From NCBI GenBank assembly GCA_036229005.1, contig JAZAMN010000034.1, positions 21,729 to 85,728 of the forward strand: DNA of 64,000 nucleotides, written 5' to 3'. The stretch is from Myxococcota bacterium (GTDB taxonomy: Bacteria > Myxococcota_A > UBA796 > CAJQPC01). The position numbers and the translations under genes were made by a program. This document shows, piece by piece, positions 52,369 to 57,978 of this stretch (positions are counted from its first letter, which is position 1; each line of letters begins with the position of its first letter). The notes beneath the pieces are model-generated. The model was not told where the DNA came from and searched no databases. It worked only from the letters and a program-made list of their open reading frames with translations.

Positions 52369-55300
52369 ATGCTGCCCCTGCTCTCGCTGCTGACCGCCCC
52401 CAGCGCCGTCCACGCCGCCGCCTACGACCCGGCCCTCGAGTGGCGGACCCTGCGCACCGAGCACTTCGAGATCACCTTCCACCAGGGCGAAGAGCAGCTC
52501 GCCAACGAGCTCGGCCACAGCGCCGAGGCCATCTACGCCGAGCTCACCGCCGACATGGACTGGACCCCCAAGGCGCCCACCCGCATCGTGCTCGTCGACC
52601 ACACCGACGTCGCCAACGGCTACGCCACTACGGTCCCCTACAACGCCATCGTCATCTTCGTGACCGCCCCCGAAGCCGCCTCCGGCCTGTCCCTCTACGA
52701 GGACTGGTCGAGCATGATCTTCACCCACGAGTACGCCCACATCCTGCACCTGGACAACGTCCAGGGCGGCCCCGCGCTGCTCCGCCACGTCCTCGGCCGC
52801 ATCATCTCGGTCAACCAGCTCTCCCCTTGGTGGATCGTCGAGGGCTCGGCCACCTACCAGGAGTCCCGCCACAGCACCGGCGGCCGCGGCTACCTGGACA
52901 ACCCCAACTCGGACATGGTCATCCGGACCGCGCTGCTGGAGGGCACCTTCCCCAGCCTGGACCAGATGGACGGCTTCATGTCCGGGCCCCCCGGCGGCAA
53001 CACCCGCTACGTCTTCGGCCAGTCCTTCCTCAGCTACGTCGCGGACAACAGCTCCGACGACGCCATCACCCGCTGGAACAGCTCCTACGGCGGCTGGTGG
53101 CTCCCCTACCTGCTCCCCGCCGAGCGCGTCTTCGGCCAGAGCTGGACCGCCCTCTACGACGGCTGGGTCGCCGAGCTCAGCGCCCGCTACGCCGAGCAGC
53201 AGGCCCAGGTCCAAGCCGGCCCCCAAGGCCTCCAGGGCACCCCAATCACCCAGGTCGACGGTAGCTGCTACGGCGCCACCTTCTCCCCCGACGGCGAGAA
53301 GCTCCTCTACGCCTGCAGCGAGCGCACCGTCGGCTCCAACATCTTCCTCGCCAAGGCCGACGGCTCCGACCCGCAGATCGAGGTCCCCGAGGGCTTCGCC
53401 AAGACCTTCACCTGGCGCCCCGACTCCCAGGCCTTCGCCTGGTCCGCCAACCACGTCGTCGACGACTTCAACCTCTACAACGACGTCTACTTCCACGCCC
53501 TGGACACCGAGAGCACCACCCGCCTCACCGACGGCCAGCGCGCCCGCGACCCCGCGTTCTCCCCCGACGGCTCCCAGCTCCTCCTGGTCAAGAACCAGGC
53601 CCAGAACAACAACCTGGGCCGCATGCACATCGACCAGTCGGTCACCCAGCTCACCGACTACAGCGACCACACCCAGCTCGGCACCCCGCGCTGGTCCCCC
53701 GACGGCCGCTTCATCGCCCTCAGCGTCTGGCAGGACGGCCAGCGCGACCTGTGGATCTTCGATGCCCTGGGTCAGCCCTACCGCCGCGTCACCGCCGACA
53801 TCCACACCGACCGCGACCCCGCCTGGTCCGCAGACGGCCGCACCCTCTACTTCGCCTCCGACCGCAGCGGCATCTCCAACCTCTACGCCATCGACCTGGA
53901 GAGCGAGCGCCTCTACCAGCTCACCAACGTCCTCAGCGGCGCCTTCCAGCCCGAGCCCCACCCCGACGGCACCCAGCTCATCTGGCAACAGTTCCACGCC
54001 CAGGGCTACCAGCTCGTCCTCGCCGACCTGGACCGCGACGCCTGGGTGGACCGCGGACTGCTCCCCCTCGACCTCGACCACGCCGGGGACCTCTCCGAAA
54101 TCGTGCGTCCCCAGGGAGGAGGTGAGGACCCGCAGCCCCCCCAGATCCCGGCCCACCTCCCCAGCACCGACAGCGGCTTCACCGGTGCCTCAACCGCCCC
54201 CCCCAGCGAGGTCACCGGTTCCCTGTCCAACCCCGCGCCGTCCAGACACGCAGTGGGCAGCGACCAGCCCACCCGCGGGGCCGACCAGGACGACTTCACC
54301 CGCGTCCGAGACGACAAGGGCGAGCAGGACCGCGACTACCCCTTCGACTTCCCCGTCCAGGACTACCGGCCCGGGTCCACGCTCTTCCCTCCCCGCTACC
54401 TGATGCCCTCGCTCTACAGCACCGGCATCGGCGTCGCCGGCTCCCTGAGCACCGCCGGCCGTGACCAGCTCAACCGCCACATCTGGGGCGCCTCCCTCAG
54501 CTATCGCAGCGACGCCAACTTCATCGGCGGTGGGGCCACCTACATCTACAACCGCTGGCGCCCGGTCATCTCCCTGAGCGCCAGCCACAGCGCCGTCCCC
54601 TACGGCGCCATCTACCGCCTGCCCGACGGCGACGCCGGCGTCGGCATCCCCACCGTCGAGCCCACCGACCAGCGCTACTGGGACAAGCGCACCCGCTTCG
54701 GCGCCGGCGTCACCTACAGCCGGCGTCAGCGCACGAACCTCTACCTCCGCTACAGCGGCGTCCTGCGGCGCCCCCTGGAGACCCTCCCCAGCGGAGTCTA
54801 CGAGCCCTTCCTGCCCACCCGCGGCTTCCTCTCCACCGTCTCGGGCGGCTGGCGCTACTACCGCGGCCGCGCCTACAGCTACTCCATCTCCCCCGAGGAC
54901 TCCCGCTACCTCGCCCTGGACGCCAACTTCACCACCAGCCTGCTGGGCTCCTTCACCTACGAGGACGGCAAGACCTCCCCCTTCAACCGCGTCCAGCTCA
55001 TGGGCGAAGCCCGCGAGTACGTCGCCCTCCCCTGGGCCGACAACCACGTCCTCGCCCTGCGCGCTGCCGGCGGCATCGCAATCGGCGACCAGCTCAACCA
55101 GGGCAGCTTCATCCTGGGCGGCAGCTTCGGCGAGAGCCCTTGGGTGGCCACCCCTGCCGAGTGGCAGGCCCTGCGCGGCTACGCCCTCGGGGCCGATCGC
55201 GGCGACGGCTACTACCTGGGCTCCCTGGAGTACCGCGCCCCCCTCTGGCGCATCGACCGCGGCTGGCGCACCGCCCCCATCTTCCTGCGCACCCTCCACG

Positions 55301-55518
55301 GCGCCGCCTTCGTCGACGTCGGCGACGCCTTCTACACCGCCGACACCCTCGAGGTCCCCCGGGTCGGCGTCGGCGCCGAACTCCGCCTGGGCATGCTCGC
55401 CGGCTGGGGCCTGGGCTTCAACAGCCGCGTCGGGTACGCCGTCGGCCTGACCGGCACCGGCGCCTTCGGCCCGGTGGACGCGGGCAGCGTGTACTTCCGC
55501 CTCGGCACCTCATTCTGA
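52369..55518 (+). CDS. Zn-peptidase (HExxH) + TolB-like PD40 propeller + Omp85/TamA barrel fusion
   Basis: Signal peptide, THEYAH...PWWIVEG.A, repeated P.(F/W)SPDG, LRGY, SLEYR.PL, FVDVG, GVGAELR, terminal YFRLGTSF. Confidence 0.8.
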   Translation: MLPLLSLLTAPSAVHAAAYDPALEWRTLRTEHFEITFHQGEEQLANELGHSAEAIYAELTADMDWTPKAPTRIVLVDHTDVANGYATTVPYNAIVIFVTAPEAASGLSLYEDWSSMIFTHEYAHILHLDNVQGGPALLRHVLGRIISVNQLSPWWIVEGSATYQESRHSTGGRGYLDNPNSDMVIRTALLEGTFPSLDQMDGFMSGPPGGNTRYVFGQSFLSYVADNSSDDAITRWNSSYGGWWLPYLLPAERVFGQSWTALYDGWVAELSARYAEQQAQVQAGPQGLQGTPITQVDGSCYGATFSPDGEKLLYACSERTVGSNIFLAKADGSDPQIEVPEGFAKTFTWRPDSQAFAWSANHVVDDFNLYNDVYFHALDTESTTRLTDGQRARDPAFSPDGSQLLLVKNQAQNNNLGRMHIDQSVTQLTDYSDHTQLGTPRWSPDGRFIALSVWQDGQRDLWIFDALGQPYRRVTADIHTDRDPAWSADGRTLYFASDRSGISNLYAIDLESERLYQLTNVLSGAFQPEPHPDGTQLIWQQFHAQGYQLVLADLDRDAWVDRGLLPLDLDHAGDLSEIVRPQGGGEDPQPPQIPAHLPSTDSGFTGASTAPPSEVTGSLSNPAPSRHAVGSDQPTRGADQDDFTRVRDDKGEQDRDYPFDFPVQDYRPGSTLFPPRYLMPSLYSTGIGVAGSLSTAGRDQLNRHIWGASLSYRSDANFIGGGATYIYNRWRPVISLSASHSAVPYGAIYRLPDGDAGVGIPTVEPTDQRYWDKRTRFGAGVTYSRRQRTNLYLRYSGVLRRPLETLPSGVYEPFLPTRGFLSTVSGGWRYYRGRAYSYSISPEDSRYLALDANFTTSLLGSFTYEDGKTSPFNRVQLMGEAREYVALPWADNHVLALRAAGGIAIGDQLNQGSFILGGSFGESPWVATPAEWQALRGYALGADRGDGYYLGSLEYRAPLWRIDRGWRTAPIFLRTLHGAAFVDVGDAFYTADTLEVPRVGVGAELRLGMLAGWGLGFNSRVGYAVGLTGTGAFGPVDAGSVYFRLGTSF

Positions 55519-55530
55519 AACGTCCCAAGC

Positions 55531-55819
55531 GGCTACGCCCTCCGAATGAGCGCTCCGCCGAAGCTACGGCCTCTGAGTGAGCGGTCCTCCGAGGCTACGC
55601 CCCACCGGTGAGCGCTTTCCCCACCGATCAGCCCCCGATTCGCTCCCAAAGGGCCCATTTCAGCCCAAAATACCCCCAAATCAGGCGCCCATGCCCGCCT
55701 CAGCGCTCACCGAGTCCCCGTAGCCTCGGGCGAGCGCTCACTGAGCCCCCGTAGCCACAGGTCACCGCTCACTCGCCCCCCGTAGCCACAGGCCACCGCT
55801 CACTCACCCCCCGTAGCCA
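55531..55819. repeat. Inverted pair of 31-bp-periodic repeat arrays (3 + 4 units)
   Basis: GCTACG-N9-TGAGCG at 55532, 55563 and 55594. Reverse complement CGCTCA-N9-CGTAGC at 55704, 55735, 55766 and 55797. Confidence 0.9.
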
Positions 55820-55941: not shown

Positions 55942-57978
55942 ATGCTCCTGCTCCTCGCCTCCCTCGCCGCCGCCGCCCTCCCTGCTGACGCCCAGGTCGC
56001 CCTCCGACGGGGGGACTGCCGCACGGCGATGCCGATCCTGGAGCCCCTGGACGGCCTCGACGCCGCCGTGGCCCGTGCCCGCTGCGGGAGCCCCGAGGGC
56101 CTGGAGTCCCACCTCGACCCCAGCTCCCCCCTGGATCCCTACGCCCGGCTGCTCCTCGCTCGGGCCCTGCTGGAGACCGACCCCGCCAAGGTGGAGTCCC
56201 TGCTCCAGGGGGTGAGCCTCGATGGCGAGCTGGGCCTTGAGCTCCGCCTCATCCGGGGCCGGGCCCTCATCCAACAGGAGCGCAGCCTGGAGGCCCGCGA
56301 CGACCTCCGCGCGCTCCTGAACACCTCCGCCCGCAGCGAGGCCCTCTACTGGCTGGCCTACGGCGCCGAGCAGCGGGGGGACGACTTCGCCGCCGCCGAC
56401 GCCTACCGCACCATGTGGACCCAGGAGGTCGCCTCCCCCTTCTCCGCCCTCGCCGGCGAGCGCCTCCAGGGCCTGGGCTACACCGTCCCCGACTACGAGA
56501 CCGAGGCCGGCCGGGAGCTCGTCCTCACCCGCGCCCGCAACCTCGCCAAGGAGAAGCGCCCCGAGGAGGCCGCCCCCCTCTTCCAGGCCCTGGACCCCCA
56601 CATGGACGGCGCGCGCTGGGATCGAGAGCTCGCCATGGCCCTGTTCAAGGCCCGGGACTACCCCGCCTCCATGGAGGCCATGGGCCGCCTGAACCCCACC
56701 CAACCCGGCGTCGTCGGGGGCGCGGAGACCCTCTTCCACTACGCCCTGGGGACCTCCCGCAACGGCGACTACGAGAAGGCCGCCGAGTACTACACCGCCC
56801 TCTTCACGCAGTACCCCAGCACCAAGCGCGCGGACACCGCCTCCTTCAAGCTCGGCTACCTGCGCTTCGACGCCGGCGACCTGCAGGCCGGCATCCCCCT
56901 CTTCGAGGCCCACCTGCAGCGCTACCCCAGCTCCGCCCACGCCGACGAGGCCATGTGGTTCATCGGCTGGTCCCACTACCAGCTCGGCCAGCTCGACCCC
57001 GCCAAGGCCGCCTTCGACAAGCTGCTGACCCGCACCCCCAAATCCTCGCTCGCCCCCGCGGCCCTCTACTGGAAGGCCCGCATCCTCGGCCGCAAGGGGG
57101 ATGCCCAGGGGGAGGAGGAGGCCCTGAGCTCCCTCATCGATCGCTACCCCACCTCCGGACATGCCTGGTTCGCCGCAGAGCGCCTGGGGAGGACCTTCCA
57201 AGGCATCGGCGAGGTCACCGTTCCGCCGCTCCCCCAGGACTTCATCGACCAGACTCCGGCCGCCCGGGATGGCCTCGCCCTGCTCGAGGCCGGCCAGGTC
57301 GACTGGGCCCGCGCTCGCTTGCTGGAGGGCACCTCAGCCGCCAGGGCCAAAGGCCGCAGTGTTGCCCTCTCCTACGCCCACCTGCTCATCAAAGCCGGCG
57401 CCTACCGCGAGGCCAAGTCCCTCGCCAGCCCCTGGTGCCCCGGAGTCACCCGCGCCGCCAACGACCCGCTGGCCGCCTCCGCCTGCACCCCGCGCCCGGA
57501 GCACGACGTCGTCCAGGAGGCCGCCGCCAAGGCCGGCCTCAACCCCAACCTGCCCTACGCCATCATGACCGCCGAGTCCGCCCTCCAGCCCCAGGTCAGC
57601 TCCTGGGCAGGCGCCCGAGGCCTCATGCAGCTCATGCCCTCGCTGGGAGACGAGCTCCACGCCGAGCTGCAAGAGGGCATCCCCTACGACCCCGACCGCC
57701 TCTTCATCGCCGGCTACAACGCGTGGCTGGGCACCACCGAGCTCGGCCGCCTCGACACCCGCTTCCGGGACGCCGGCATCTCCCCCGCGCTCCCCCTCAC
57801 CATCGCCGGCTACAACGGCGGCGCCGAGGCCGTCGCCCGCTGGGTCGAGGCCGCCGAGAGCCCCGACGGCGACTGGTTCGCCGAGAACATCGGCTACACC
57901 GAGACCCGCCGCTACTGCCGCCGCGTTTTGGGCTTCTTGATGATGTACCGCTGGGTCTACGGCGACGACCCCGCCTGA
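55942..57978 (+). CDS. TPR-containing soluble lytic transglycosylase (Slt70-like)
   Basis: Signal peptide, TPR helices, AIMTAES catalytic Glu, GARGLMQLMP, AGYNGG, ETRRY. Confidence 0.9.
   Translation: MLLLLASLAAAALPADAQVALRRGDCRTAMPILEPLDGLDAAVARARCGSPEGLESHLDPSSPLDPYARLLLARALLETDPAKVESLLQGVSLDGELGLELRLIRGRALIQQERSLEARDDLRALLNTSARSEALYWLAYGAEQRGDDFAAADAYRTMWTQEVASPFSALAGERLQGLGYTVPDYETEAGRELVLTRARNLAKEKRPEEAAPLFQALDPHMDGARWDRELAMALFKARDYPASMEAMGRLNPTQPGVVGGAETLFHYALGTSRNGDYEKAAEYYTALFTQYPSTKRADTASFKLGYLRFDAGDLQAGIPLFEAHLQRYPSSAHADEAMWFIGWSHYQLGQLDPAKAAFDKLLTRTPKSSLAPAALYWKARILGRKGDAQGEEEALSSLIDRYPTSGHAWFAAERLGRTFQGIGEVTVPPLPQDFIDQTPAARDGLALLEAGQVDWARARLLEGTSAARAKGRSVALSYAHLLIKAGAYREAKSLASPWCPGVTRAANDPLAASACTPRPEHDVVQEAAAKAGLNPNLPYAIMTAESALQPQVSSWAGARGLMQLMPSLGDELHAELQEGIPYDPDRLFIAGYNAWLGTTELGRLDTRFRDAGISPALPLTIAGYNGGAEAVARWVEAAESPDGDWFAENIGYTETRRYCRRVLGFLMMYRWVYGDDPA

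Follow-up and report, generated by a model that had tools for sequence, protein, structure and literature searches.

The repeats at positions 55,531 to 55,819 of the window, by which we mean the whole stretch of 64,000 nucleotides that was analyzed, are one copy of a dispersed family of inverted double arrays, and our best reading of the system behind them is a hairpin-free analogue of REP/REPIN systems, putatively mobilized by enzymes similar to those of TnpA-Y1 subclass 2.1. More specifically, comparative sequence data suggest that the members of this family (family A) are bound, copied, and reshaped on double-stranded DNA by a RAYT-like enzyme encoded on contig C27 of the host genome, a proposal to which we give a probability of about 0.68.

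The original prediction described seven units of GCTACG-N9-TGAGCG arranged in two opposed arms, and all seven lie at the expected positions and on the expected strands (Table 1), while 100 dinucleotide shuffles gave an expectation of 0. The 31-bp period, the 89-nt center, and both 11-bp complementarities between the innermost units are likewise present in the sequence. The flanking genes had been labeled Omp85-peptidase and SLT; the second label holds for the TPR-SLT protein downstream, but the first is not confirmed in its peptidase part, as no peptidase hit passed upstream. The stop codon of the upstream gene lies 13 bp before the first box. Most family-A centers are bounded by the inverted motif CCACCGAT, whose inverted partner is present in most family-A copies and degenerate in the window copy. 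In another strain, the element occupies the identical site, and the differences fall mostly in variable positions.

Table 1. Coordinates of the element in the window, of its neighbors, and of related features in the host genome (G000; C numbers denote contigs).
Feature	Position	Strand	Description
Left arm, three units with a 31-bp period	55532..55614	+	Box 1 GCTACG, N9, box 2 TGAGCG at 55532, 55563, and 55594
Center, 89 bp	55615..55703	none	A/T tracts at intervals of about 10.5 bp
Family-A inner motif CCACCGAT	55621..55628	+	Within the center
Right arm, four inverted units	55704..55817	-	Starts at 55704, 55735, 55766, and 55797; box 2 toward the center
Upstream host gene, outside the element	52369..55518	+	TolB-like propeller, weak BamA-type C-terminus
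Downstream host gene, outside the element	55942..57978	+	TPR and SLT lytic transglycosylase
Family-A gene	G000:C27:37209-37985		At a contig end; array beside it cut by IS110
IS110-like left ends	C22:84039, C29:34401, C58:6636, C71:243264		Contig ends, G000
IS110-like right ends	C15:118, C27:38167, C29:120, C48:68235, C50:106812		Contig ends, G000

The host is a marine bacterium with a 6.4 Mb genome (70% GC, 74 contigs). A genome-wide search with the same pattern gave 199 exact matches at a spacer of 9 and at most 10 at any other spacer from 0 to 29. These matches group into 45 elements, each with two inward-facing arms. With the other motif families there are five in all (A, 45 elements; B, 14; C, 32; D, 12; E, 20), for a total of 123 inward-facing double arrays, 122 of which are two-armed. 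All 123 are intergenic, none of them lying within a gene called by our own gene caller. The exact family-A pattern was absent from 40 relatives searched, a looser pattern found a variant in one of 21 family members (G002), and family-A patterns had no match in viral contigs or in JGI metagenome contigs, collections from which entries close to the host genome may have been withheld. Other kinds of long repeated hairpin-like sequence were observed at the ends of contigs C65 and C70.

The spacing of these elements is regular. Steps within arms are 31 bp in 541 of 550 cases, and the distances between arms take the values 37, 47, 58, 68, 79, 89, 99, 110, and 121 bp, a series with an R of 0.95 at 10.4 bp over 122 elements. 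About 10.4 bp is the helical repeat of B-DNA. All three phase classes modulo 31 are filled, and thus unit gain alone does not explain the ladder of center lengths. Of 44 family-A centers, 42 have a length of 88, 89, or 99 bp, and the A/T content has a periodicity of about 10.5 bp in 43 of the 44 (p ≤ 0.01). Since arm spacing and A/T tracts share the 10.4-bp phase, they point to double-stranded recognition. One family-A element (G000:C57:83702-83986) carries an additional unit inside its center and is possibly an intermediate of unit insertion.

The route to the partner enzyme was a 247-residue open reading frame with RAYT-like motifs located immediately upstream of one array in G002. The host genome encodes five paralogues that are 50 to 61% identical to it, and each of them is adjoined by its own double-array family. 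In contigs of another strain, from two studies, the region upstream of the family-A gene runs into family-A units without IS110. The protein matches TnpA-REP 4ER8 in a profile search (E 1.6e-7), and its structure model (pLDDT 97) aligns with 4ER8 over residues 1 to 151 (Z 11.3) and with DnaA domain IV over residues 167 to 242 (Z 4.9, rmsd 2.1, 76 aligned), although the latter score can also be reached by a common helical arrangement. HTH_23 was detected in 23 of 111 protein-family members at E ≤ 0.05, and the HxH motif and the tyrosine are intact at 66 of 66 loci. The curated RAYT model NF047646 gave 36.5 bits (E 4e-9), which is below its cut-off of 80, and Pfam Y1_Tnp found nothing in the host genome or in three congeners. 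By these profiles and models, the enzymes are divergent RAYT/TnpA-REP-like HUH proteins with a predicted DnaA-like C-terminal helix-turn-helix. A 270-residue look-alike at G000:C57:36552-37364 (weak profile match, probability 14%) has neither the HxH motif nor an adjoining array.

The association of gene and array extends beyond the host. A single query found homologues in 27 of the 61 genomes searched, including the host, and none in the other 34, and the named homologues are mostly labeled Myxococcota or Deltaproteobacteria. After the removal of duplicate and partial loci, an inverted double array was found within 750 bp of the gene at 64 of 87 unique full-length homologue loci versus 0 of 76 control genes; no array with a period of 31 or 32 bp passed at the other 23. 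When periods of 26 to 36 were tested, the 64 arrays had a period of 31 in 53 cases and of 32 in 11; the longer period was seen, for instance, at L035, L061, and L148 (G001 and G002) and at L047, L070, L179, and L180. The array lies downstream of the gene in 36 cases and upstream in 28, and the motifs vary between loci. Two motifs from beside homologues proved to be dispersed within the genomes they came from. One was matched 35 times in G021 but not at all in four other genomes; the other was matched 7 times in G001 and 14 times in G002, with one of the clusters adjoining a homologue fragment. In motif-free scans, 240 kb of the host yielded 5 arrays, whereas samples of 200 kb yielded 1 array in G021, which has 19 homologues, and none in G008, which has 10; the last two figures imply that high copy number is not general. 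A scan of 443 kb from three homologue-free genomes gave no real array and one poly-G artefact, these samples being too small to establish absence. The enzyme gene of G002 also has short tandem repeats of about 12 to 13 bp and of 8 to 10 bp on its flanks (L012:1207-1428, 2587-2650, and 2700-2860), which have no relation to the 31-bp array.

Variation among 66 loci, computed after removing overall protein similarity, suggests how an enzyme might recognize its own array. Box 2 co-varies with residues 220 to 226, the predicted recognition helix (partial r 0.40, permutation maximum 0.23), and box 1 with residues 58 to 67 of the HUH domain (partial r 0.24, permutation maximum 0.17). Arg220 accompanies an AC-type tail of box 2 (22/30 versus 9/35), Pro220 a CG tail (9/14 versus 7/51), and Ser61-Gly62 the sequence AT[GC] in box 1 (16/18 versus 3/47); the cross tests were not significant. 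In family A, the enzyme carries Pro220 and box 2 has a terminal CG. Phylogeny-aware pairs, from a tree that excluded L079, which has no helix-turn-helix, gave 4.7 pairs in the same direction and 0.0 in the opposite one for Pro220 with a CG tail, of 8 pairs. Independent-pair tests went in the predicted direction, with median p values of 0.06 to 0.38; they are underpowered, and the traits were picked after viewing the data. From these associations, we infer that the C-terminal helix-turn-helix reads box 2 and that HUH helix 58-67 reads box 1.

The enzyme genes may also share a mode of induction. A box that we take from its consensus to be of the sigma54 type lies upstream of 39 of 84 homologues, in most cases at a constant spacing from the gene, and precedes 47 of 5425 host genes. 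The combination of TGTC-N8-GACA followed by such a box occurs upstream of 12 host genes, namely the five paralogues, comEC, radC, an integrase, the weak look-alike on C57, and three others. A tyrosine integrase with this combination is located at G000:C23:5873-6643. The strict pattern was not found before dprA, and partial matches precede comM and ssb.

Several observations bear on mobility. The gene gaps that hold family-A elements are convergent in 20 cases, tandem in 18, and divergent in 1 (n = 39), versus 348, 1700, and 773 in the background (n = 2821), which amounts to an excess of convergent gaps, and over the five families the element starts at a median of 14.5 bp from a stop codon as placed by our own gene caller. 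Some whole elements or centers are 82 to 92% identical at unlinked loci, and the median center identity is 43%. In G007 and G008, the two orthologous genes are separated by about 22 bp with no array between them. Three related family-A copies (G000 C16:69369, C54:61000, and C60:1585) have about 55 bp of flank in common on one side, which suggests that flanking DNA can travel along with the element. There was no sign of target-site duplication, the longest flanking direct repeat averaging 5.0 versus 4.6 in shuffled pairs (n 45), and no conserved outer end or cut-site motif was found beyond the outer units; on these two grounds, we rejected a MITE dependent on a DDE transposase.

The arrays are themselves a target of an IS110-like element, whose insertions, seen at contig ends of the host genome, split box 2 of family A at GCT|CAC. 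At the left end of the IS, a small stem is flanked by GAAGCGCT and GTGAGTGAG, which match the sequences to either side of the target in the way expected of bridge-RNA target guides; a comparison case is that of IS621 and REP (PMC11208160). Two of the right ends adjoin box-like sites without arrays, and another strain lacks the insertion next to the family-A gene.

According to our best reading, the C27 enzyme would bind one unit per three turns of double-stranded DNA and would copy and reshape the family-A element, much as has been proposed for TnpA-REP and its REPs. The phasing suggests that protomers would line one face of each arm and that the innermost ones would meet head to head, a contact that short centers would permit directly, while long centers would bend out by whole turns with the aid of the phased A/T tracts. 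Judging from the chemistry of the family, the HUH domain would nick a locally unpaired or incoming single strand and rejoin it via a phosphotyrosine. Exchange between sites one unit apart could lead to the gain or loss of 31-bp units, and exchange with a distant site to a new copy without target duplication. The promoter pattern in common suggests that this activity would take place during competence, with single-stranded DNA present. The double-stranded part of the proposal is without direct precedent because the characterized TnpA-REP enzymes cut single-stranded hairpins, at least in the available text of Corneloup et al. (PMC8266576). Of the three readings offered by the original prediction, that of a RAYT-associated non-autonomous repeat fits best, with a RAYT-like gene beside a family-A array elsewhere in the genome, but the GTAG argument used for it is weak, since the tetranucleotide is nearly confined to families A and B (90% of A, 97% of B, and 2 to 3% of C, D, and E units sampled) and is followed by no hairpin. 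The reading as a cooperative protein-binding site survives insofar as a phased platform is concerned, but the likely binder is a transposase and not an iteron, ParB, or nucleoid protein.

It could also be that the host has domesticated the arrays, keeping pairs of gene and array as a means of tuning natural transformation or the local topology of its DNA, with copying as a rare side effect. Single strands entering the cell might, for instance, be cut close to arrays, in the manner of SsnA at NTS repeats (PMC11893778). Relics are nearly absent, as the five families together have 5 stray units, of which IS110 interrupts 3, and this scarcity would be odd for a purely selfish element. Furthermore, the boxes and their phase have been kept while the centers have diverged, the promoter pattern is common to comEC and radC, and G001 and G002 have orthologous gene-array loci in matching context. 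On the other hand, family A is missing from the 40 relatives, more than half of the genomes searched gave no homologue with the one query used, and the presence of several paralogues with private motifs in a genome looks like the turnover of replicators. We regard domestication as an unlikely account of the arrays, albeit one that is compatible with the best explanation rather than exclusive of it.

A less probable alternative is that the substrate is the folded-back single strand, in which paired boxes would offer duplexes to the helix-turn-helix and mismatched spacers would offer bubbles to the HUH domain, much as a bulge in the E. coli REP is required for activity (PMC8266576). Single units form no hairpins and thus lack the palindrome of 20 to 50 nt that characterizes REPs (with 60 units taken from every family, the five mean folding z values ranged from -0.28 to +0.13). 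A possible within-unit stem, CTCAG/CTGAG, was rejected, as it had no covariation. The whole element in the window can nevertheless fold back on itself (z -9.5). In each of the five families, pairing at variable positions is lower inside an element than across different elements (0.36 versus 0.46 in family A), a deficit below chance that could be selected. Part of this deficit follows local strand skew, and skew in the elements partly tracks that of the local genome, just as in other gaps (rho 0.27 versus 0.26); the skew has no tie to the direction of the flanking genes. Moreover, neither the 10.4-bp ladder of center lengths nor the phasing of the A/T tracts would be accounted for by a single-stranded loop, and we consider a folded substrate quite improbable.

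Phased boxes and a bendable center do resemble partition and origin sites, but 123 scattered copies, 122 of them two-armed, in five motif families that are each tied to a transposase-like gene make an iteron, a centromere, a nucleoid-organizing site for a host protein, or a decayed minisatellite very improbable. Least credible of all is a structured non-coding RNA or 3′-UTR hairpin, the class to which the RNA hairpin proposed at the outset belongs, because, although most elements lie near stop codons and would fold if transcribed, the pairing deficit just described leaves no arm-to-arm covariation, Rfam had no match over the element (two weak hits fell outside it), and helical phasing is a property of DNA; the elements may still affect mRNA ends secondarily, as REPs are known to do.

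More broadly, we offer the tentative proposal, whose odds we place somewhat below even, that a competence-induced HUH-HTH clade builds helix-phased nucleoprotein arrays on hairpin-free double-stranded DNA via a two-domain code, mainly in Myxococcota-like bacteria, and that double-stranded synapsis would license the cutting and capture of single-stranded DNA. If this were true, a genome would contain several pairs of enzyme and target that are orthogonal to one another, and Y1 transposition would have a mode licensed by double-stranded synapsis and not by single-stranded hairpins. Dozens of natural enzyme-target pairs come with residue-level predictions, and thus the role of the helix-turn-helix and the way in which REP-like repeats spread are directly testable. 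The promoter in common with competence genes is a concrete candidate for the trigger, and orthogonal, re-targetable HUH enzymes might be of use in joining single-stranded DNA.

Among known proteins, the closest in domain content are those of TnpA-Y1 subclass 2.1.2, which have a C-terminus of the DnaA or HTH type according to Quentin et al. 2018 (PMC6006769). The parts of their paper available to us describe subclass 2.1 as the second largest, report no REP-like sequences near its genes in automatic or manual searches, and doubt that its HTH reads DNA targets. Subclass 2.1 (2.1.2) corresponds to RAYT group 1 of Bertels et al. 2017 (PMC5581495), for which the accessible text gives a modest abundance of flanking repeats. 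Our enzymes have in common with subclass 2.1.2 the HUH/Tyr core, the DnaA-like or HTH_23-type C-terminal domain, and a conserved serine motif (WPWS) after the tyrosine. Unlike the subclass 2.1 genes described in that text, they have cognate arrays at most homologue loci, and the clade, whose likeness to the subclass is one of domain content, is divergent, as seen from the lack of a Pfam Y1_Tnp hit in the host genome and the score below the NCBIfam cut-off. TIRYTs, as presented in the available text of Di Nocera et al. 2013 (PMC3733652), are also RAYT-like genes associated with repeats other than REPs, and some of these repeats form dispersed families in dimers or clusters. In TIRtrons, however, the repeats bracket the gene, while here a complete two-armed, helix-phased element lies on one side. 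We rejected a TIRtron arrangement, as an exact inverted repeat of at least 14 bp across the gene was found in only 2 of 81 homologues. The motif GGGGWSAS occurred near homologues at background level.

Helix-phased double arrays with a 31-bp period had no description in the mainly open-access full texts that we searched. In the SsnA/NTS system of Neisseria, a GIY-YIG single-strand nuclease acts on hairpin repeats and a function in transformation has been shown, as far as the accessible text goes (PMC11893778). It resembles the present system in having a dispersed repeat that flanks its own single-strand enzyme and a link to transformation, which here is only inferred, but its protein fold is unrelated and our repeats have no hairpins. 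The REP/BIME/REPIN systems, in the portions of the two sources at hand (PMC8266576; bioRxiv 10.1101/2021.07.10.451892), also offer parallels. Groups 2 and 3 are described in PMC8266576 as depending on hairpins for single-strand cutting. Here the units form no hairpin, GTAG is common in the sampled units of two families, the period is a strict 31 bp with a 10.4-bp ladder of center lengths, and the enzyme has an additional HTH domain, variation in which follows that of one box. In common are a dedicated enzyme for each family, a repeat adjoining the gene, intergenic copies after stop codons, an inverted doublet layout, and targeting by IS110. Thus, the system described here falls outside both the REP hairpin test and the TIRtron test, yet it probably works like a REP/RAYT system.
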